Below, piece after piece: positions 1,913 through 56,213 of a DNA stretch of 64,000 nt. Location of the stretch: the NCBI RefSeq assembly GCF_053078305.1, contig NZ_CP166879.1. One strand, 5' to 3'. The notes under the pieces were generated by a model that had not been told where the DNA came from, did not search any database, and worked only from the letters and a program-made list of their open reading frames with translations. A program made the translations under genes and the position numbers. Within the stretch, counting starts at the first letter, position 1. Every line of letters starts with the position of its first letter.

Positions 1913-2995
1913 GTGAAACCAGTAACGCTATACGATGTCGCAGAGTATGCCGGTGTCTCTTATCAGACCGTTTCCCGCGTGGTGAATCAGGCCAGCCACG
2001 TTTCTGCGAAAACGCGGGAAAAAGTGGAAGCGGCGATGGCGGAGCTGAATTACATTCCCAACCGCGTGGCACAACAACTGGCGGGGAAACAGTCGTTGCT
2101 GATTGGCGTTGCCACCTCCAGTCTGGCCCTGCACGCGCCGTCGCAAATTGTCGCGGCGATTAAATCTCGCGCCGATCAACTGGGTGCCAGCGTGGTGGTG
2201 TCGATGGTAGAACGAAGCGGCGTCGAAGCCTGTAAAGCGGCGGTGCACAATCTTCTCGCGCAACGCGTCAGTGGGCTGATCATTAACTATCCGCTGGATG
2301 ACCAGGATGCCATTGCTGTGGAAGCTGCCTGCGCTAATGTTCCGGCGTTATTTCTTGATGTCTCTGACCAGACTCCCATCAACAGTATTATTTTCTCCCA
2401 TGAAGACGGTACGCGACTGGGCGTGGAGCATCTGGTCGCATTGGGTCACCAGCAAATCGCGCTGTTAGCGGGCCCATTAAGTTCTGTCTCGGCGCGTCTG
2501 CGTCTGGCGGGCTGGCATAAATATCTCACTCGCAATCAAATTCAGCCGATAGCGGAACGGGAGGGCGACTGGAGTGCCATGTCCGGTTTTCAACAAACCA
2601 TGCAAATGCTAAATGAGGGCATCGTTCCCACTGCGATGCTGGTTGCCAACGATCAGATGGCGCTGGGCGCAATGCGCGCCATTACCGAGTCCGGGCTGCG
2701 CGTTGGTGCGGATATCTCGGTAGTGGGATACGACGATACCGAAGACAGCTCGTGTTATATCCCGCCGTTAACCACCATCAAACAGGATTTTCGCCTGCTG
2801 GGGCAAACCAGCGTGGACCGCTTGCTGCAACTCTCTCAGGGCCAGGCGGTGAAGGGCAATCAGCTGTTGCCCGTCTCACTGGTGAAAAGAAACACCACCC
2901 TGGCGCCCAAGACGCAAACCGCTTCTCCCCGCGCGTTGGCCGATTCATTAATGCAGCTGGCACGACAAGTTTCCCGACTGGAAAGCGGGCAGTGA
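1913..2995 (+). CDS. lacI: Lactose operon repressor LacI
   Basis: Protein MKPVTLYDVAEYAGVSYQTVSRVVNQ... ending ...RLESGQ; canonical GTG start at 1913 (track ORF starts 9 nt earlier). Confidence 0.98.
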   Translation: MKPVTLYDVAEYAGVSYQTVSRVVNQASHVSAKTREKVEAAMAELNYIPNRVAQQLAGKQSLLIGVATSSLALHAPSQIVAAIKSRADQLGASVVVSMVERSGVEACKAAVHNLLAQRVSGLIINYPLDDQDAIAVEAACANVPALFLDVSDQTPINSIIFSHEDGTRLGVEHLVALGHQQIALLAGPLSSVSARLRLAGWHKYLTRNQIQPIAEREGDWSAMSGFQQTMQMLNEGIVPTAMLVANDQMALGAMRAITESGLRVGADISVVGYDDTEDSSCYIPPLTTIKQDFRLLGQTSVDRLLQLSQGQAVKGNQLLPVSLVKRNTTLAPKTQTASPRALADSLMQLARQVSRLESGQ

Positions 2996-3079: not shown

Positions 3080-6192
<3,113 letters not shown>

Positions 6193-6198
6193 TAATAA

Positions 6199-7497
<1,299 letters not shown>

Positions 7498-7562
7498 GCA
7501 ATCAATGTCGGATGCGGCGCGAGCGCCTTATCCGACCAACATATCAGGACGGAATGATCGCA

Positions 7563-8174
7563 ATGAACATGTCGATGACAGAAAGAATAAAAGCAGGCAA
7601 GCTATTTACCGATATGTGCGAAGGCTTACCTGAAAAAAGACTTCGTGGGAAAACATTAATGTATGAGTTTAATCACTCGCATCCATCCGACGTTGAAAAA
7701 AGAGAAAGCCTGATTAAAGAAATGTTTGCCACGGTAGGGGAAAACGCCTGGGTAGAGCCCCCCGTCTATTTCTCTTACGGTTCCAACATCCATATAGGCC
7801 GCAATTTTTATGCAAATTTCAATTTAACCATTGTCGATGACTACACGGTAACGATCGGTGATAACGTACTGATTGCACCCAACGTTACTCTTTCCGTTAC
7901 GGGACACCCTGTACACCATGAATTGAGAAAAAACGGCGAGATGTACTCTTTTCCGATAACGATTGGCAATAATGTCTGGATTGGGAGTCATGTGGTCATT
8001 AATCCAGGCGTCACCATCGGGGATAATTCTGTTATTGGCGCGGGTAGTGTCGTCATAAAAGACATTCCACCAAACGTCGTGGCTGCTGGCGTTCCTTGCC
8101 GGGTTATTCGCGAAATAAACGACCGGGATAAGCAATATTATTTCAGAGATTACAAAGTTGAATCGTCAGTTTAA
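7563..8174 (+). CDS. lacA: Galactoside O-acetyltransferase
   Basis: MNMSMTERIKAGKLFTDMCEGLPEKRL...; the track ORF is extended upstream through a REP element, true start taken as ATG 7563. Confidence 0.95.
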   Translation: MNMSMTERIKAGKLFTDMCEGLPEKRLRGKTLMYEFNHSHPSDVEKRESLIKEMFATVGENAWVEPPVYFSYGSNIHIGRNFYANFNLTIVDDYTVTIGDNVLIAPNVTLSVTGHPVHHELRKNGEMYSFPITIGNNVWIGSHVVINPGVTIGDNSVIGAGSVVIKDIPPNVVAAGVPCRVIREINDRDKQYYFRDYKVESSV

Positions 8175-8276
8175 ATTATAAAAATTGCCTGATGCGCTTC
8201 GCTTATCAGGCCTACAAGTTCAGTGATCTACATTAGCCGCATCCGGCATGAACAAAGCGCAGGAACAAGCGTCGCA

Positions 8277-9458
8277 TCATGCCTCTTTGACCCACAGCTG
8301 CGGAAAACGTGCTGGTGCAAAACGCAGGGTTATGATCATCAGCCCAACGACGCACAGCGCATGAAATGCCCAGTCCATCAGGTAATTGCCGCTGATACTA
8401 CGCAGCACGCCAGAAAACCACGGGGCAAGCCCGGCGATGATAAAACCGATCCCCTGCATAAACGCCACCAGCTTGCCAGCAATAGCCGGTTGCACAGAGT
8501 GATCGAGCGCCAGCAGCAAACAGAGCGGAAATGCGCCGCCCAGACCTAAACCACACACCATCGCCCACAATACCGGCAATTGCAGCGGCAGCCAGATAAA
8601 GCCGCAGAAACCCACCAGTTGTAACGCCAGTGCCAACAGCAAAAGTTTGCGCCGATCCTGATGGCGAGCCATAGCAGGCATCAGCAAAGCTCCTGCGGCT
8701 TGCCCAAGCGTCATCAATGCCAGCAAGGAACCGCTGTACTGCGCGCTGGCACCAATCTCAATATAGAAAGCGGGTAACCAGGCAATCAGGCTGGCGTAAC
8801 CACCGTTAATCAGACCGAAGTATAGGCCCAGCGTCCAGGCGCGGGGAGTAAATACCACGCGAACCGGAGTGGTTGTTGTCTTGTGGGAAGAGGCGACCTC
8901 GCGGGTGCTTTGCCACCACCAGGCAAAGAGCGCAACAACGGCAGGCAGCGCCCACCAGGCGAGTGTTTGATACCAGGTTTCGCTATGTTGAACTAACCAG
9001 GGTGTCAGGGCGGCACCAAGTCCACCGCCGCCCATCAGAGCCGCGGACCACAGCCCCATCACCAGTGGCGTGCGCTGCTGAAACCGCCGTTTAATCACCG
9101 AAGGCATCACCGCCTGAATGATGCCGATCCCCACCCCACCGAGCAGTGCGCTGCTAAGCAGCAGCGCACTTTGGGGGTAAAGCTCACGCATCAATGCACC
9201 GACGGCAATCAGTAACAAACTGATGGCGACGCTGCGACGTTCGCTGACATGCTGATGAAGCCAGCTTCCGGCCAGCGCCAGCCCGCCCATGGTAACCACC
9301 GGCAGAGCGGTCAACAGGGCAGCCACGCTAAAGCTCATTCCGCTTGCCTGGCGCAATTGCGGTAGCAGTGGACCGACGGAGGTGAGCAGTGGTCGCATAT
9401 TAAGACCAATCAGCACCAGAACCAGCAGTATCGTGAACGTCTTTTGATGGTTGCGCAT
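8277..9458 (-). CDS. cynX: Cyanate transporter (MFS)
   Basis: Multi-pass membrane protein immediately downstream of cynS; matches remembered CynX; exact start among N-terminal Met codons uncertain. Confidence 0.9.
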   Translation of the reverse strand: MRNHQKTFTILLVLVLIGLNMRPLLTSVGPLLPQLRQASGMSFSVAALLTALPVVTMGGLALAGSWLHQHVSERRSVAISLLLIAVGALMRELYPQSALLLSSALLGGVGIGIIQAVMPSVIKRRFQQRTPLVMGLWSAALMGGGGLGAALTPWLVQHSETWYQTLAWWALPAVVALFAWWWQSTREVASSHKTTTTPVRVVFTPRAWTLGLYFGLINGGYASLIAWLPAFYIEIGASAQYSGSLLALMTLGQAAGALLMPAMARHQDRRKLLLLALALQLVGFCGFIWLPLQLPVLWAMVCGLGLGGAFPLCLLLALDHSVQPAIAGKLVAFMQGIGFIIAGLAPWFSGVLRSISGNYLMDWAFHALCVVGLMIITLRFAPARFPQLWVKEA

Positions 9459-9463
9459 GGCTG

Positions 9464-9952
<489 letters not shown>

Positions 9953-10624
9953 TTAAAAATAAGGTTGCGCTGCGGTCGGTTGGCGTAGCGGTATGGCACA
10001 AACGCGAGGATTAGCGGCCAGTGGCACAAACTGGCGGGTTGCGCCGTCAAACGCTGCGATGCTGCCGCTTTCAATGTCGTAGACCCAGCCGTGCAGGGCG
10101 ATCCGCCCCTCTTCGAGCGCCAGGCGCACCGATGGATGAGTTTGCAAATTAGCCAACTGAGCAATGACGTTTTCACGTACCATCGCCGCCGCTTTTGACG
10201 GTAAATCGGGATGCGGGCGCGCCTCATTAACGACGCGGGCTGAATCGGCATAACGCAGCCAGTGGGAGACGGCAGGCATATGGTCCATGCACTGACAGCT
10301 GGCAATGGCGGTCATTGCGCCACAGTTGGAATGACCGCAAATCACAATGTCAGATACCCGAAGCGCAGCGACGGCATACTCCACCGAAGCAGAAACGCCA
10401 CCGGGTTCAGGCCCGTAGGAAGGGACGATATTGCCTGCGTTGCGAATAACGAACAGATCGCCAGGCTCACGTTGCGTCACCAGCTCAGGGACCAGACGGC
10501 TGTCGGAGCAGGAGATAAAAAGGGTGCGCGGGCTTTGCTGTGTCGCCAACTGTTTAAATAAGGCTTCCCGCTTCGGAAATGCCTCGCGCTGGAATTTAAG
10601 GAATCCGTCAATAATCTCTTTCAC
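9953..10624 (-). CDS. cynT: Carbonic anhydrase (beta class)
   Basis: [47 protein letters not shown]...; beta-CA motifs CSDSR and HSNCG. Confidence 0.95.
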
Positions 10625-10733
10625 CGTTAACCTCTGTCTGTCTCTGGAATGAGAGGCAGACTACTCGCCCATTGCTATAAGGTAAAAGACTCATTTATGA
10701 TAAGTTCTATTGGATTTACTTATAGGTTGGCGA

Positions 10734-11633
10734 ATGCTCTCTCGACATATCAATTACTTTCTTGCCGTGGCTGAACATGGCAGCTTCACCCGCGCCGCCA
10801 GTGCGTTGCACGTCTCCCAGCCTGCGCTTTCCCAGCAGATTCGCCAGTTAGAGGAGAGTTTAGGCGTGCCGCTGTTTGACCGTAGCGGGCGAACGATTCG
10901 TCTCACTGATGCAGGAGAAGTCTGGCGACAGTACGCCAGCCGGGCGTTACAGGAACTGGGGGCGGGTAAACGGGCGATTCATGATGTTGCCGATCTGACG
11001 CGAGGATCGCTGCGTATCGCCGTCACCCCCACCTTTACGAGCTACTTTATCGGCCCCTTAATGGCGGATTTCTATGCGCGCTATCCCGGCATCACGCTCC
11101 AGCTACAGGAAATGTCGCAGGAGAAAATCGAGGATATGCTTTGCCGCGACGAGTTGGACGTTGGGATTGCCTTCGCGCCTGTGCATTCGCCGGAGCTGGA
11201 GGCAATTCCCTTACTAACAGAAAGTTTAGCGTTAGTCGTGGCGCAACATCATCCGCTGGCCGTCCATGAACAGGTGGCGTTGAGTCGCTTGCATGATGAA
11301 AAACTGGTCCTGCTCAGCGCGGAATTTGCCACCAGAGAGCAAATTGACCACTACTGCGAGAAAGCGGGGCTGCATCCACAGGTGGTCATTGAGGCGAACT
11401 CAATTAGCGCGGTTCTGGAGCTGATTCGCCGCACTTCCCTTTCCACATTGTTACCAGCAGCGATTGCCACACAACATGACGGGCTTAAAGCTATTTCTCT
11501 TGCCCCGCCACTACTGGAGAGAACGGCGGTTTTGTTGCGGCGGAAAAATAGCTGGCAGACTGCCGCCGCGAAGGCATTTTTGCAAATGGCGTTGGATAAA
11601 TGCGCGGTTGTTGGCGGAAATGAATCGCGGTAA
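10734..11633 (+). CDS. cynR: LysR-family regulator of the cyn operon
   Basis: [41 protein letters not shown]...; divergent from cynT; start taken at ATG 10734. Confidence 0.93.
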
Positions 11634-48599: not shown

Positions 48600-48727
48600 C
48601 CAGTATCCCCACTGTTATTGTTACCATTTAAAATCAAATTCGTAACAATTAAGACACATTTTATATTGAACGTCCAATCAATAACCGCTTTAATAGATAA
48701 ACAACGCTGATGAATGGAGTGGCGAAA

Positions 48728-49315
48728 ATGCCCAAATTGGGGATGCAGTCGATCCGGCGCAGACAACTGATCGACGCCACACTGGAAGCAATAAATGAAG
48801 TGGGCATGCACGATGCAACGATCGCGCAGATCGCCAGCCGTGCAGGCGTTTCTACGGGGATCATCAGCCACTATTTCAGGGACAAAAATGGTCTGCTGGA
48901 AGCAACCATGCGCGATATCACCAGTCAGCTGCGTGACGCGGTTTTGAATCGATTACATGCACTTCCGCAGGGCAGTGCAGAGCAGCGATTACAGGCGATT
49001 GTTGGCGGAAACTTCGATGAAACGCAGGTGAGCAGTGCGGCGATGAAAGCCTGGCTGGCGTTCTGGGCCAGCAGTATGCATCAGCCGATGCTCTATCGTT
49101 TACAGCAGGTCAGCAGCCGCCGCTTGCTGTCGAATCTGGTGAGCGAGTTTCGCCGCGAATTGCCGCGCCACCAGGCACAGGAAGCGGGCTACGGCCTTGC
49201 CGCGCTGATTGACGGATTATGGCTGCGCGCGGCACTGAGCGGCAAACCGCTGGATAAACCTCTCGCACACTCGCTGACCCGTCACTTTATTACTCAGCAT
49301 TTACCCACCGATTAA
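48728..49315 (+). CDS. betI: TetR-family repressor of bet genes
   Basis: [36 protein letters not shown]...; divergent from betT. Confidence 0.95.
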
Positions 49316-49328
49316 CCGAGGAGACGTG

Positions 49329-50801
49329 ATGTCCCGAATGGCAGAACAGCAGCTTTATATACATGGTGGTTATACCTCCGCCACCAGCGGTCGCACCTTC
49401 GAGACCATTAACCCGGCCAACGGTAACGTGCTGGCGACCGTGCAGGCCGCCGGGCGTGAGGATGTCGATCGCGCCGTGAAGAGTGCCCAACAGGGGCAAA
49501 AAATCTGGGCGGCGATGACCGCGATGGAACGCTCGCGTATTCTGCGTCGGGCCGTTGATATTCTGCGTGAACGCAATGACGAACTCGCAAAACTGGAAAC
49601 CCTCGACACCGGAAAAGCATATTCGGAAACCTCAACCGTCGATATCGTTACCGGTGCGGACGTGCTGGAGTACTACGCCGGGCTGATCCCGGCGCTGGAA
49701 GGCAGCCAGATCCCGTTGCGTGAGACGTCATTTGTTTATACCCGCCGCGAACCGCTGGGCGTGGTGGCGGGGATTGGCGCATGGAACTACCCGATCCAGA
49801 TTGCCCTGTGGAAATCCGCCCCGGCGCTGGCGGCAGGCAACGCAATGATTTTCAAACCGAGCGAAGTCACCCCGCTTACCGCGTTAAAGCTGGCTGAAAT
49901 TTACAGCGAAGCGGGCCTGCCGGACGGCGTATTTAACGTGTTGCCGGGCGTGGGCGCGGAGACCGGGCAATATCTGACCGAGCATCCGGGCATTGCCAAA
50001 GTGTCATTTACCGGCGGTGTCGCCAGCGGCAAAAAAGTGATGGCTAACTCGGCGGCCTCTTCCCTGAAAGAAGTGACCATGGAACTGGGCGGTAAATCAC
50101 CGCTGATCGTTTTCGATGATGCGGATCTCGATCTCGCCGCAGATATCGCCATGATGGCAAACTTCTTCAGCTCCGGTCAGGTGTGTACCAATGGCACCCG
50201 CGTCTTCGTTCCGGCGAAATGCAAAGCCGCATTTGAGCAGAAAATTCTGGCGCGCGTTGAGCGCATTCGCGCGGGCGACGTTTTCGATCCGCAAACTAAC
50301 TTCGGCCCGCTGGTCAGCTTCCCGCATCGCGATAACGTGCTGCGCTATATCGCCAAAGGCAAAGAGGAAGGCGCGCGCGTACTGTGCGGCGGCGATGTAC
50401 TGAAAGGCGATGGCCTCGATAACGGCGCATGGGTCGCGCCGACTGTGTTCACCGATTGCAGCGACGAAATGACCATTGTGCGCGAAGAGATCTTCGGGCC
50501 GGTGATGTCCATTCTGACCTACGAGTCGGAAGAGGAAGTCATTCGCCGCGCTAACGATACCGACTACAGCCTGGCGGCGGGCATCGTGACGGCGGACCTG
50601 AACCGCGCGCATCGCGTCATTCATCAGCTGGAAGCGGGTATTTGCTGGATCAACACCTGGGGCGAATCCCCGGCAGAGATGCCCGTTGGCGGCTACAAAC
50701 ACTCCGGCATTGGTCGCGAGAACGGCGTGATGACGCTCCAGAGTTACACCCAGGTGAAGTCCATCCAGGTTGAGATGGCTAAATTCCAGTCCATATTCTA
50801 A
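49329..50801 (+). CDS. betB: Betaine aldehyde dehydrogenase
   Basis: [32 protein letters not shown]...; ALDH motifs ([18 protein letters not shown]). Confidence 0.97.
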
Positions 50802-50814
50802 CCAGGAGGTTTAT

Positions 50815-52503
50815 TTGCAATTTGACTACATCATTATTGGTGCCGGCTCAGCCGGCAACGTTCTCGCTACCCGTCTGACTGAAGATCCGAATACCTCCGT
50901 GCTGCTGCTTGAAGCGGGCGGCCCGGACTATCGCTTTGACTTCCGCACCCAGATGCCCGCTGCCCTGGCATTCCCGCTACAGGGTAAACGCTACAACTGG
51001 GCTTACGAGACGGAACCTGAACCGTTTATGAATAACCGTCGCATGGAGTGCGGACGCGGTAAAGGCCTGGGTGGATCGTCGCTGATCAACGGCATGTGCT
51101 ACATCCGTGGCAACGCGATGGATCTCGACAACTGGGCAAAAGAACCCGGTCTGGAGAACTGGAGCTATCTCGATTGCCTGCCCTACTACCGCAAGGCCGA
51201 GACCCGCGACGTGGGCGAGAACGACTACCACGGCGGCGACGGCCTGGTGAGCGTCACCACCTCCAAACCCGGCGTCAATCCGCTGTTTGAAGCGATGATT
51301 GAAGCGGGCGTGCAGGCGGGCTACCCGCGCACGGACGATCTCAACGGTTATCAGCAGGAAGGTTTTGGTCCGATGGATCGCACCGTCACGCCGCAGGGCC
51401 GTCGCGCCAGCACCGCGCGTGGCTATCTCGATCAGGCCAAATCGCGTCCTAACCTGACCATTCGTACTCACGCTATGACCGATCACATCATTTTTGACGG
51501 CAAACGCGCGGTGGGCGTCGAGTGGCAGGAAGGCGACAGCACCATTCCAACCCGCGCGACAGCGAATAAAGAGGTGCTGTTATGTGCAGGTGCGATCGCC
51601 TCTCCGCAGATCCTGCAACGTTCCGGCGTGGGTAGCGCTGAACTGCTGGCGGAGTTTGATATTCCGCTGGTGCATGATTTACCCGGCGTCGGCGAAAATC
51701 TTCAGGATCACCTGGAGATGTACCTGCAATATGAGTGCAAAGAACCGGTTTCCCTCTACCCTGCCCTGCAGTGGTGGAATCAGCCGAAAATCGGTGCGGA
51801 GTGGCTGTTTGGCGGCACCGGCGTTGGTGCCAGCAACCACTTTGAAGCAGGCGGATTTATTCGCAGCCGAGAGGAATTTGCGTGGCCGAATATTCAGTAC
51901 CATTTCCTGCCAGTAGCGATTAACTATAACGGCTCGAATGCAGTGAAAGAGCACGGCTTCCAGTGCCACGTCGGATCGATGCGCTCGCCAAGCCGTGGGC
52001 ATGTGCGGATTAAATCCCGCGACCCGCACCAGCATCCGGCGATTCTGTTTAACTACATGTCGCACGAGCAGGACTGGCAGGAGTTCCGCGACGCAATTCG
52101 CATCACCCGCGAGATCATGCATCAACCGGCGCTGGATCAGTATCGTGGCCGCGAAATCAGCCCCGGCACGGAATGTCAGACGGATGAGCAGCTCGATGAG
52201 TTCGTGCGTAATCACGCCGAAACCGCGTTTCATCCGTGCGGTACCTGCAAAATGGGCTACGACGAGATGTCCGTGGTTGACGGCGAAGGCCGCGTGCATG
52301 GGCTGGAAGGCCTGCGCGTGGTGGATGCGTCAATTATACCGCAGATTATCACCGGGAATTTGAACGCCACGACAATTATGATTGGCGAGAAAATAGCGGA
52401 CATGATTCGTGGACAGGAAGCGTTGCCGAGGAGCACGGCGGGATATTTTGTGGCAAATGGGATGCCGGTGAGAGCGAAAAAAATGAGTCGTGATTTGAAC
52501 TGA
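50815..52503 (+). CDS. betA: Choline dehydrogenase (GMC oxidoreductase)
   Basis: ...[23 protein letters not shown]...; AGGAGG at 50804-50809 positions a TTG codon at 50815; the in-frame ATG at 50770 lies inside betB. Confidence 0.93.
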
Positions 52504-53569
52504 CTCAAGAACCGATCAGATTGAGAGTTACCGTTCCAGGTATGGGGACAGAATCGTTATATAAAACATAGGGGTAACTCTCATGCTTCATAGTGACAAC
52601 CTCGCCAGCAAATTCTAAGCGGACTCGTTCAATCTGGCTGATGAAGGTGCTATGAATGCACTGATAAACCGCAGGTGAAATGCCACTCAGCTTAAGAATT
52701 ACGCCGCTAATGTTCCTTGCTATGGTTACCTGTTCATTCCCGCTCACGGTTAGCATGTACGAAAAGGGTTCTTGTAACGAGTACAAAAATAAGTCAGACC
52801 AAAACCACATGGAGCTTTAAACACGGTTCGTATAATTTATTAGCAGCGATTTATTTTTACTCTTCTTTAATTAATCATCATGCTTAAATATTTTTTAGCA
52901 CAAGATTATCGCTTCGCTAACATTTTATTTTACATTCATCATCAATTGATAATAAAAAATTGTTAATAATTTATTGCAAAAAACAAAAAGTGTTGGAATA
53001 CTCTCCATCAAATGAATACATAATAAACAAATTGAGATATACAAAAAGTAAAAACCATTTAAATGAATATTTTTAATTTATGAGCAGAACCCATTAACAA
53101 TGATTTACTAACCACCAGAAAAGTAAAGAACACCTTGCAATAATATGTATTTATAAATTCATATCATTGATATTAAACCAATCTTACTTTCTACCCTCCA
53201 ACTTTATGCATCAAAAAAAACAAAAGTAAAATCAATTAGATACACAACAAGGCAATCTCACAGGAAATGATGTTAAATATCTCAAAACTAATAAAAAATT
53301 ACTAAAATATTAGACGTAACACACATCCCACACGACCTGTCACTCATAGTTTTAATATTTATTTTTTCACATCATAGTAGATAAAAATACGCATTAAAAA
53401 TGACTTGTAGAAAAGCTGCACAATAAATAGTTCATATTTAGTCTGTTGCGTAGAACTACTATTCAAAAAATCTTATTAATGAGATAATGAGATTACATCG
53501 ATAACGTTCTGATGGCAGGCATACTTATCTGGGTGTGCCTCTCTTTTTTACAACTGTACACGGTGGCGT

Positions 53570-54133
53570 ATGACGAGAAAATATCTCACACAGGATGAAG
53601 TCTACAGGCTGATGGATGCAGCCCAGAGCATGTCCTTTCCTGAAAGAAATCGCTGTCTAATTATGATGGCTTTCATTCACGGTTTTAGGGCCAGTGAACT
53701 TCTTGATTTACGTTTATCCGATATTGATGCATCAGGAAAACAACTTAATATTCGGCGTATTAAAAATGGTTTCTCGACGACACATCCTCTTCTTCCTGAT
53801 GAATATAATTTGATCAAGTTGTGGCTTAAGCAGAGGAAGTTAATTGAAAACGGAGTTGAAGGAGACTGGCTTTTTCTCTCCCGGAAACGCCGCCCTATCA
53901 GCAGACAACATTTTTTTTCTATCATTCGTGAGGCTGGAAAACGTGCAGGATTAGCTGTAAAAGCACATCCTCATATGTTACGTCATGCCTGTGGTTTTGC
54001 TCTGGCTGACAATGGTGTCGATACCCGACTACTCCAGGATTATCTGGGTCATCGAAATATCCAGCATACTGTCAGATACACAGCCAGTAATGCTGCTCGA
54101 TTTAAAGGGGTGTGGAAAAAAAAACCTCGTTAA
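53570..54133 (+). CDS. FimB/FimE-family tyrosine site-specific recombinase
   Basis: 187 aa; strong similarity to remembered FimB/FimE blocks (FIHGFRASE, FSTTHPLL, HPHMLRHACGFALADNGVDTRLLQDYLGHRNIQHTVRYTASNAARF); preceded by ~760 bp of AT-rich ORF-free DNA. Possibly ipuA-like. Confidence 0.88.
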   Translation: MTRKYLTQDEVYRLMDAAQSMSFPERNRCLIMMAFIHGFRASELLDLRLSDIDASGKQLNIRRIKNGFSTTHPLLPDEYNLIKLWLKQRKLIENGVEGDWLFLSRKRRPISRQHFFSIIREAGKRAGLAVKAHPHMLRHACGFALADNGVDTRLLQDYLGHRNIQHTVRYTASNAARFKGVWKKKPR

Positions 54134-54145
54134 AACAGTACCTTC

Positions 54146-54423
54146 TGATTCAAAATGTCAGATTCCTACGTTTTCCTCAATTCTTCCATAAAAAAACAGC
54201 CCATTCAATTAAATAAAACACATAACATGTTGATATTTCTCGCTAAAGTAAAATAACCCCATGATTTGAAATGATTAACCACCAAGGTCATACCAGTGAT
54301 TAACTTTCGCTCATATTGTTAAATAACACAAAATTAAAAACAATAAAAATCAAACAAATTAGATTTATATTCCAAGAAAATTAAATATTCAGGCTATTAA
54401 ACCAAACCTGACATTTTGAATCA
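54146..54423. promoter_or_regulatory. Candidate invertible DNA switch (fimS-like) bounded by 16-bp perfect inverted repeats
   Basis: TGATTCAAAATGTCAG at 54146-54161 and its exact reverse complement CTGACATTTTGAATCA at 54408-54423, flanking 246 bp of AT-rich DNA between the recombinase and the LuxR-type regulator. Confidence 0.65.
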
Positions 54424-54462
54424 AAATGTCAGGTTTTGTAGCAATGGCGTGGACGAGTCTGA

Positions 54463-55257
54463 ATGAAGAAGCCTCTGGTTATTATCAGTGCCTGTCAGTT
54501 CACCAGGCTGGCACTGGAGTCTCTCATCCCAGCGGACAGGTATATCGTGCGGGTGTACAGCAACGTCACTACAGAGGTTGAATTCGTTTTAAAAACCTCC
54601 TGTGGCTACCTGTTGGCTGATATCCCTTCGCTTCCTTCGGGGGAGTTAGTTCTTCTGGCTTGTCTTGTCCGCTTGCGGAGTGATGCCGGGCAATGGCAGG
54701 TCTGCCTGACCGGTGACTCCGACTGGTCCGATAATGCTCCTGCTGCAAGTCTGTATAACGGCTTCCCACATATCGGCACCATGCTGACAGCGAGTCGTTA
54801 TCAGAATCAAATTATCCGCTGGTTACTACGTCCTTTACCCGGCGATATGAGTGATTTCTGGCTCCTGACTGCACGGGAGTTAAGCGTGCTTAAGATTCTG
54901 ATGCAGGGCATGAGTTTCAGTGAGATTGCCCGTTATGAACAACGCAGTTCAAAGACCCTGCATGCGATTGCCACACGGGCTTTAATGAAACTTGGACTGG
55001 GAACACTGAGCGATTTCAGGCTGCTCTATACGGGATGCGGTGACAGCAGAGTGAAACGGAATATACGGCTACATGCAAAATATATCGGACAACATTCCGC
55101 TCATCGACTCACTCAGTATGTGCAGAACATGGTATCCGGAATCCTTTATCCAGAGAAAGTTGCCGTTGGTGAATCAATAAATTCTGACGCCATTTCCGGA
55201 AAAGTACTTTCCGGACAAAGAAAAAATATATCTAAAAAAAGACCAGGATTGTTATGA
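54463..55257 (+). CDS. LuxR-type HTH transcriptional regulator
   Basis: 264 aa; HTH LTARELSVLKILMQGMSFSEIARYEQRSSKTLHAIATRALMKLG; starts 40 bp after the right inverted repeat. Possibly ipuR-like. Confidence 0.8.
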   Translation: MKKPLVIISACQFTRLALESLIPADRYIVRVYSNVTTEVEFVLKTSCGYLLADIPSLPSGELVLLACLVRLRSDAGQWQVCLTGDSDWSDNAPAASLYNGFPHIGTMLTASRYQNQIIRWLLRPLPGDMSDFWLLTARELSVLKILMQGMSFSEIARYEQRSSKTLHAIATRALMKLGLGTLSDFRLLYTGCGDSRVKRNIRLHAKYIGQHSAHRLTQYVQNMVSGILYPEKVAVGESINSDAISGKVLSGQRKNISKKRPGLL

Positions 55258-55410
55258 CACAGCAGCGTTGTTACTACCACCCACTGCGGCGCATACGGAC
55301 TCGCTACAGTGTAGGAGCCAAAATATTTCTACTGTTCTGGGCTGCAGGATTGGGAGGCACGCTGTACAGCCTGTACAGCGTGCTGGCGTACTGACATCTG
55401 TGAGGGAAGG

Positions 55411-56172
55411 ATGCGTTTCGTTCTTTTCTGTCCCTCAGGAATTGTACCAGCGCAGTTCGCAGCTCTATCAACCGGTTCTGTCGGCAATGTTACCTGCATC
55501 AGAACAGAAGAGGAGTTACGCAATAAATTGCGGCACAGGCCACAGAATGTCGTGATATCGGCAGGGCGACCTGCCGAATGCGCTGAAATGTGGTTCCGAT
55601 TTTATCGGGATCACTCATTCGTGGTGGTGTTGTGCGTCGCGCCCTTTTTTCTGCCACCGGATGTGAGTATTTCTGGCGTTCTCAAAAACCTGAGGTTACT
55701 GAAACCAGGAATGTCAGTAGAGCATGTCATCAGTATTGCAAATACCTCTGGTGGGTTTTCAGGGCTGAAACATGCAGAAATTTTGCCAGTTATGGACAGT
55801 TACTCTGTCTTTATGAAAGAGGTGAATAACCGCACAAAGACAATCGTCATGTCAGAACGCTTCCCGGAAAAGCAAAAGAAGGTGTTGTCGTTGCTTCTTG
55901 CCGGACACAGCTGGGAATACAGTGCGCAGTTTCTCAAAACGGGGATAAGACAGATATGGCTTGCCGAGCAGTCGCTAAAAAAGCGTTGGGGAATACCGGA
56001 CAGCATGTCATTGCGGGAAGCCCTGCTGCTGAGCAGCAATAAATTTCACGGTGATGGAAATGCATTGGAAAAAACGAATGCCATGACATTGCGTGAAAAC
56101 GGAAATACCAACAGGTATTCCGTGGTGGTAAATGCAGGGACGCAGGTTTTATCTCTGCATAAATATAAATAA
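55411..56172 (+). CDS. Second, divergent LuxR-like regulator
   Basis: 253 aa; degenerate LuxR-type HTH near the C-terminus (EKQKKVLSLLLAGHSWEYSAQFLKTGIRQIWLAEQSLKKRWGIP); no intact response-regulator phosphoacceptor signature recognised. Confidence 0.6.
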   Translation: MRFVLFCPSGIVPAQFAALSTGSVGNVTCIRTEEELRNKLRHRPQNVVISAGRPAECAEMWFRFYRDHSFVVVLCVAPFFLPPDVSISGVLKNLRLLKPGMSVEHVISIANTSGGFSGLKHAEILPVMDSYSVFMKEVNNRTKTIVMSERFPEKQKKVLSLLLAGHSWEYSAQFLKTGIRQIWLAEQSLKKRWGIPDSMSLREALLLSSNKFHGDGNALEKTNAMTLRENGNTNRYSVVVNAGTQVLSLHKYK

Positions 56173-56213
56173 GTGGGAAATTGAAATTAGTTACCAGAAT
56201 GGAGAATTTCTTC

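Follow-up and report, generated by a model that had tools for sequence, protein, structure and literature searches.

The AT-rich tract at positions 52810-53570 of the window, by which we mean the whole 64-kb stretch of DNA analysed here, carries no gene and no recombinase relic. It is probably the control region of the invertase gene fimX, occupying the 5' end of the E. coli island PAI-X, which is non-coding, and combining a platform for H-NS, a promoter with its leader, and a weakly constrained or unconstrained core. The locus itself is that of the published island, which is also named the 'UpaB cluster' (PMC3789825, PMC4844996) and has the arrangement betA / ipbA-hyxS-hyxR-hyxA-hyxB / ykgH, where ipbA is the gene otherwise called fimX or hbiF. 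Roughly a third of E. coli carry this segment, located between betA and ykgH. In the best-matching E. coli genomes, RefSeq annotates the gene order betT, betI-betB-betA, gap, ipbA, hyxR, hyxA, hyxB, ykgH. The invertible hyxR promoter, hyxS, has been placed between fimX and hyxR (PMC6083910, PMC6458436). Coordinates of these features, and of the parts of the gap described below, are collected in Table 1.

Table 1. Features between betA and hyxR, in window coordinates
Feature	Position	Strand	Basis or remark
Core spacer (K-12-shared) after the betA stop	52504..52592	.	Alignment with RR1 locus L005
Island left end, ~44% GC	52593..52810	-	Minus-strand ORF 52505-52810 (101 aa) crosses the junction
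Distal conserved AT-rich block	52810..52950	.	90-100% identity between allele classes (alignment, sliding identity)
Hypervariable AT-rich core	~52950..53370	.	Identity between classes 47-72% at 53085-53270
Proximal conserved block	53370..53569	+	Candidate fimX/ipbA promoter and structured 5' leader, alternatively sRNA
AU-rich predicted 10-bp hairpin on tandem TAATGAGA repeat	53469..53494	+	Folds
Intrinsic-terminator-like element	53517..53549	+	Terminator scan and folds
ipbA (=fimX=hbiF), tyrosine-type DNA invertase, 187 aa	53570..54133	+	Pfam PF00589; RefSeq annotation of homologous loci
hyxS invertible element	54148..54435		Between ipbA and hyxR
hyxS recombination-site copies	54148-54164, 54405-54421, 54419-54435	+, -, +	

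Island setting, composition and coding content

The sequence-only reading had placed the tract in an acquired island, and alignment with the K-12-like RR1 locus bears this out, giving an accessory segment of ~52593-58584 with junctions at 52592/52593 and ~58584/58585. Three base pairs (ATA) are shared at the island junction, and in island-free genomes the match to the query stops at 52592. The AT-rich tract belongs entirely to the island, whose first 978 bp are non-coding. Of 5,426 complete E. coli genomes, 1,889 have the tract, in every case between betA and ipbA. Outside E. coli, where 100,044 species genomes were searched with IpbA peptides, the only occurrence is in an Escherichia sp. contig with just 579 bp of upstream DNA. 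A literature search for papers naming the Sakai locus tags of this locus found none.

The tract has a GC content of 27.6%, compared with 50.75% in the whole window, so that AT reaches 72.4% over more than 700 bp of accessory DNA. It lies in the sole part of the window where any 761-bp stretch falls below 32% GC (0.19th percentile), and its density of TpA steps and count of A/T-tracts are the highest or near-highest in the window. An AT-rich stretch free of ORFs, upstream of a recombinase, is what had been described from the letters; the stretch was confirmed, as was its placement directly upstream of a FimB-family recombinase (IpbA matches the Pfam family Phage_integrase at 3.7e-50). The real non-coding interval is longer than claimed, the betA stop (52503) and the ipbA ATG (53570) being separated by a gene-free gap of 1,066 bp. 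The ORF list contains no ORF of at least 60 aa inside 52810-53570, and the longest fully internal one has 39 aa. At the left edge there is an overlapping ORF of 56 aa, while the 101-aa minus-strand ORF only abuts that edge. Because composition predicts such an absence (an ORF of at least 60 aa occurs in just 17% of composition-matched shuffles), the lack of ORFs is uninformative, and the informative facts are therefore composition and length.

Apart from trivial ones within invariant DNA, no ORF of at least 12 aa is intact across the allele classes. Two candidate small proteins were considered and rejected: a 28-aa ORF at 52880-52966, in which 7 of the 28 residues are changed where the DNA differs by ~9%, and a 51-aa 'hypothetical protein' annotated in O157-type alleles, which is broken in the class to which the window belongs. 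As to coding signal, a six-frame Pfam search gives two sub-threshold matches only, both to unrelated families.

The same reading had suggested the remnant of a lost second recombinase gene, pointing to two adjacent recombinases reported near the switch of uropathogenic E. coli. Adjacent pairs of Fim-type recombinases are indeed known at other switches, namely fimB/fimE at fimS and ipuA/ipuB at ipuS (PMC6083910), and the tract is about as long as one Fim-type recombinase gene. These tandem pairs, two FimB-family genes beside a switch, match this description, which does not fit fimX at hyxS (PMC6083910, PMC6458436). Unlike them, hyxS is accompanied by just one recombinase in all alleles examined, and the DNA upstream of that gene holds no trace of an integrase. 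The similarity check against recombinases that had been proposed, carried out here as a six-frame Pfam scan of 52593-53572, returned no Phage_integrase match at E<=10, with IpbA itself serving as the positive control, and each of the six frames contains 19-29 stops per 326 codons. Sensitive blastn (word size 11) found no paralogous DNA in the 5,426 E. coli genomes, in plasmids or in phages; the tract occupies one place per genome in 1,894 genomes, and relatives of it were not found on plasmids or phages. Nine annotated loci and one cryptic-clade contig show no extra gene at this place. A decayed FimB-family gene that once stood beside ipbA, as fimB stands beside fimE or ipuA beside ipuB, is thus highly improbable, and this reading of the tract is effectively refuted, which removes a tempting but wrong interpretation of the gap.

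Allelic variation across the tract

Seven alleles were compared, those of the window, strain 33F4, ST131, AR_0374, O157:H7, CS18F and the cryptic-clade Escherichia MOD1-EC7003. By both-strand blastn all seven are collinear and on the same strand, with none inverted. An inverted segment was rejected as the source of the core's divergence, all blastn matches between alleles being collinear and plus-strand.

Conservation is very uneven along the gap. The proximal block shows 95-100% identity across the seven alleles, remains 95-96% identical to that of MOD1-EC7003, whose ipbA has a dS of 0.22, and is at least 92% identical in 1,889 of 1,889 carriers, a pattern which points clearly to purifying selection. 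The core, in which no ORF is conserved across alleles, has a divergence of p ~0.25-0.5, compared with dS values of 0.008-0.085 for ipbA, 0.04-0.11 for hyxR and ~0.2 for betA. Since the island genes have diverged less than this at synonymous sites, the core is either unconstrained and fast-evolving or consists of old alleles swapped between lineages. To illustrate, ipbA differs between ST131 and AR_0374 by 1 nt in 564, as against 17-41 positions per 100 in the core, a contrast due partly to the recent exchange of a tract of ~1.1 kb that covers the proximal block, ipbA and hyxS. Between alleles generally, the dN of ipbA is ~0.

Another view is that most of the tract, namely 52810-53370, is functionless, drifting AT-rich filler left by gene decay, with at most the last 100 bp mattering for fimX. 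Divergence in the core is faster than at synonymous sites of the adjacent island genes, no ORF, motif or repeat is conserved there, a decayed ORF adjoins the tract, and in other strains IS3 and IS1 elements have inserted inside it while the locus was not lost. Against this, the distal block and a small conserved patch within the core (53279-53318) retain 85-100% identity between classes whose intervening sequence differs by 30-50%. Furthermore, essentially all of the 1,889 carriers keep the tract at full length, whereas a kilobase of neutral DNA would be expected to suffer deletions. We therefore consider filler an unlikely account of this interval, albeit one with a real chance of being right. 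In the control-region reading that we prefer, the central ~400 bp would be weakly constrained or unconstrained, with much more divergence or exchange between lineages than in the flanking genes, and might tune fimX levels by lineage.

For cases in which intergenic alleles are replaced or diverge ahead of conserved genes, Oren et al. reportedly used the term 'horizontal regulatory switching' in 2014. A near-invariant ipbA behind sharply divergent upstream alleles resembles this. Unlike alleles of that kind, those of the tract are homologous, collinear and ~50-80% identical rather than unrelated, and part of the contrast comes from the recent exchange.

Candidate control elements upstream of fimX

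The predicted folding energy of the proximal block on the plus strand is -41.9 kcal/mol, as compared with -30.8 +/- 3.7 for shuffles (z -2.97), whereas the minus strand in the window gives a z of +0.37. The plus-strand z varies among alleles between -1.1 and -3.5, being weak in some, and these scores suggest that the block may form a structured RNA. An extended -10-like TGAGATAAT can be read from the sequence at 53480-53488, where it overlaps the AU-rich hairpin; neither promoter scan picked it up. The hairpin of the terminator-like element (53517-53540) would have 10 pairs, 4 of them G-C, and is followed by CTC and by T6 at 53544-53549. This T-run, which is T8 in some alleles, ends 20 nt ahead of the ipbA ATG, and a Shine-Dalgarno-like GGTGG lies in between at 53562-53566. 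The sole change in the stem among alleles is from U-G to C-G, which keeps the pair. Covariation is nearly absent from the proximal block, one pair only having changes on both sides, because the block hardly varies.

Each of the four PAI-X genes has been reported to form a separate transcription unit, fimX RNA being at about the dnaE level in APEC (PMC4844996), which implies that fimX should have a promoter of its own in the tract. The earlier suggestion that the recombinase promoter lies here is plausible on that ground and from the conservation of the last ~200 bp in all carriers. Its weaker side is the sigma-70 site itself: consensus scanning of the tract found fewer sites than in shuffles, PWM scores reach 7.0 at most, and nothing convincing emerged. 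In the distal block there is a perfect TATAAT (52831-52836), although without a convincing -35 element. Conservation and folding together lead us to place the fimX promoter and a structured 5' leader, probably, within the last ~200 bp, where the terminator-like hairpin and U-run just ahead of the start codon could lower or attenuate expression. A terminator 20 nt ahead of an ATG fits poorly with a simple promoter-to-gene arrangement and remains an awkward feature of this layout.

The proximal block may alternatively encode an sRNA, which had been listed among the earlier suggestions. Stated fully, ~53370-53549 would be an independent sRNA gene ending at the hairpin and U-run, with the fimX promoter elsewhere or fimX transcribed by read-through. 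The predicted structure is strand-specific with a terminator-like 3' end, ~180 nt is a typical sRNA size, and the block, although non-coding, is about as conserved as the ipbA coding sequence. However, Rfam gives no match to a known RNA family in the tract at E<=1, the promoter scans identified no promoter, no RefSeq genome has an RNA annotated here, the z-scores are inconsistent between alleles, and the U-run begins 3 nt past the stem. A promoter with a 5' UTR explains the conservation equally well, and we regard a free-standing sRNA gene as improbable.

H-NS is the other component of the proposed control region. The sequence-only reading had taken the tract for a typical H-NS nucleation site, and its composition does fit the preference of that protein. 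In ChIP-seq of strain CFT073, ipbA has an H-NS IP/input of 15.88 and is classed as 'H-NS bound', with weak RNAP; hyxA (7.21) is bound, hyxR (3.26) is not called bound and betA (0.97) is not bound (PMC9765446 Data set S1A, Hustmyer et al. 2022). The CFT073 allele of the gap is 94.4% identical to that of the window over its full length. The claim is reasonable and has indirect support from binding at the adjacent gene; the values are tabulated per gene, the CFT073 supplement listing no intergenic coordinates, and we infer binding to the gap itself from its composition and from the ChIP signal on ipbA. On these same grounds, the whole AT-rich, TpA-rich tract (72% AT) would act as an H-NS binding platform that keeps fimX weakly transcribed and sets it apart from the GC-rich bet operon. 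The tract resembles regions under xenogeneic silencing by H-NS in its AT content over more than 700 bp, in being accessory DNA, and in adjoining a gene that, in CFT073, is bound by H-NS and has weak RNAP. It differs from them in that no helical phasing of A-tracts was found, hence no phased curvature, and in that matches to the high-affinity H-NS motif are not above shuffle expectation. H-NS-bound DNA is reported to capture transposons (10.1101/2024.02.16.580519), and the IS3 and IS1 insertions inside the tract would fit such capture.

A parallel may be drawn with the nanC-fimB region, ~1.4 kb upstream of fimB, which according to Sohanpal et al. (2004/2007) and Donato et al. (1997) carries distal NanR, NagC and IHF sites, H-NS reportedly repressing fimB. 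In both cases more than 1 kb of AT-rich, gene-free DNA (here the 1,066-bp gap) lies directly upstream of a FimB-family recombinase gene, and low, tunable expression of the recombinase sets phase-switching rates. Unlike the nanC-fimB region, the tract belongs to an accessory island rather than to the core genome, and it has no DNA similarity to that region, as judged by the blastn search at word size 11 in which it occupies one place per genome. Nor do its matches to the NanR, NagC and IHF consensus rise above chance; the same scans with Fur, CRP, PhoB, Lrp, OxyR, FNR, ArcA and Fis also gave nothing above shuffles. The tract contains no GATC sites.

Its position beside an invertase could also suggest an additional phase-variable element within the tract, on which FimX would act. 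Such AT-rich DNA adjoins an invertase, many short AT-rich inverted repeats can be drawn in it, and it shares with fimS, hyxS and ipuS the same neighbourhood and a similar composition, its variable core being of similar size. Unlike those switches, it has no flanking recombinase sites: copies of the hyxS site (<=3 mismatches) are absent from the tract and found only at hyxS. There is no orientation polymorphism either, all alleles being collinear on one strand. In UTI89 and CFT073 overexpressing each Fim recombinase, genome-wide sequencing (SVRE) detected only fimS, hyxS and ipuS (PMC6458436), which makes the tract negative in that screen. A further invertible element is contradicted by these results and can be considered excluded.

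In uropathogenic and meningitis E. coli, FimX (IpbA, HbiF) switches type 1 pili ON, and it also inverts the hyxR promoter, so the amount of FimX sets virulence-relevant switching rates. We found no description of the control of fimX itself in the accessible literature, although a mapped promoter may already be published. There is nothing new in kind about an AT-rich control region belonging to a known island gene, and if the model of H-NS and a leader holds, the tract is one more case of xenogeneic silencing of an island gene, which is useful but not surprising. The additions made here are modest, namely a conserved leader layout with a terminator-like hairpin and a hypervariable core; they narrow the constrained elements to the last ~200 bp, including the hairpin and U-run, and set them behind an upstream core that differs sharply between lineages. 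A bolder proposal can be framed, although we think it rather unlikely: the invariant ~180 nt before fimX would be a structured leader or sRNA whose terminator hairpin attenuates or insulates expression of the recombinase, and the core a swappable, lineage-specific regulatory cassette that sets FimX levels and hence the switching rates of fimS (type 1 pili) and hyxS. If true, this would be an unrecognised layer of control over a virulence phase switch.

The left edge of the island

Between the betA stop and the island junction, the K-12-shared spacer contains a stem-loop, read from the sequence, in which GAGAGTTACC (52523-52532) pairs with GGTAACTCTC (52573-52582). The minus-strand ORF that spans this spacer and the island left end has no family match in Pfam or NCBIfam and is not a recombinase. 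Among 5.8 billion proteins, its matches are ORFs of 57-101 aa only, and every one with a named source is from E. coli. In the CS18F allele it is broken by 96 extra bp and in-frame stops, and its pN/pS is 0.2-0.5, a ratio resting on very few changes. It probably represents a decayed gene and is, at the left edge, the only gene-like relic of the region.

Deletion of the invertible element hyxS

The right end of hyxS, the invertible element between the recombinase gene ipbA and hyxR, is a palindrome made up of two oppositely oriented copies of the recombination site (copies 2 and 3 in the table), so that pairing with the left-end site is possible in either inverted or direct orientation. In CS18F, EC12, 200177 and FDAARGOS_1303, hyxS is removed by an exact 271-bp deletion between the two direct copies of the site, leaving 58 bp between ipbA and hyxR (3824-3881 in the CS18F locus and 8666-8723 in that of FDAARGOS_1303). 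The deletion occurs in approximately 5% of genomes positive for PAI-X, the accessory island between betA and ykgH, a figure based on 94 records with a hit of at least 99% identity to the deletion junction; the three sampled from among them each matched as a single piece. The deletion is found with two different allele classes of the upstream AT-rich tract, the gene-free DNA between betA and ipbA, which suggests repeated excision accompanied by permanent loss of phase variation.

Features of the AT-rich tract, the hyxS region and the island/core junction. Positions are those of the window unless a strain is named.
Feature	Position	Strand	Remarks
hyxS recombination site, copy 1	54148-54164	+	left end
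hyxS recombination site, copy 2	54405-54421	-	right end; palindrome with copy 3
hyxS recombination site, copy 3	54419-54435	+	right end; palindrome with copy 2
Pyrimidine tract	53541-53549		CTC+T6 in the window, 33F4, O157; CTT+T6 in CS18F; CTCTC+T8 in ST131, AR_0374
Near-identical ST131/AR_0374 tract	ST131 6604-7704 (~53400-54500)		compared with the AR_0374 locus
IS3-family element	FDAARGOS_1303 6720-7948 (~53436)		~150 bp upstream of ipbA
IS1	ECNB21-M121 3232-3929 (~52768)		at the point where prophage lysis genes replace the island
Inverted repeat, perfect, 10 bp	52523-52582		GAGAGTTACC ... GGTAACTCTC; 40-nt loop; directly after the betA stop, core side of the junction
ORF, unannotated, 93-101 aa	52505-52810; CS18F 2098-2560	-	spans the island/core junction

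Apparent exchange around ipbA and variation upstream of it

ST131 and AR_0374 are nearly identical, with 0-1 differences per 100 bp, over about 1.1 kb comprising the proximal block of the AT-rich tract, ipbA and hyxS; the flanks, betA on one side and hyxR and hyxA on the other, carry 2-10 differences per 100 bp. From this sequence pattern, it looks like a recent recombinational exchange between the two, limited to the recombinase-switch module. Alleles also differ in the length of the pyrimidine tract 3' of the leader hairpin, a terminator-like structure upstream of ipbA. If the hairpin is indeed a terminator, such variation could alter termination efficiency. In two strains, FDAARGOS_1303 and ECNB21-M121, IS elements have inserted within the AT-rich tract.

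PAI-X is decaying in the O157:H7 lineage (N8B7-2, 6813-11506, and Sakai), where ipbA is frameshifted, hyxR and ykgH each contain an internal stop, and hyxB has lost about 1 kb by truncation. The AT-rich tract is full-length in this lineage despite the decay of the island genes, and a 'hypothetical protein' of 44-51 aa (ECs_0356) is annotated in its variable core.

The betA side of the island

The bet operon (betI-betB-betA, 48700-52503) is a patchwork, with identity to other E. coli ranging from 0.89 to 1.00 in 100-bp windows. Its betA 3' end and the following spacer (52000-52592) share only about 94% identity with K-12-type genomes, and betA has a dS of about 0.2 between lineages of E. coli, which is high for a core gene. 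The inverted repeat in this spacer, possibly a betA 3' structure, is shared with K-12-type genomes.

The minus-strand ORF across the junction received no family assignment from Pfam or NCBIfam, and its matches among 5.8 billion proteins are short ORFs only, every named one from E. coli. Its pN/pS is 0.2-0.5, a value resting on few changes, and the CS18F-type allele has in-frame stops and 96 additional bp. This ORF is possibly what remains of the C-terminal part of an unknown gene; in that case the island would have been deleted from K-12-type genomes, as opposed to PAI-X having been inserted at a clean site.
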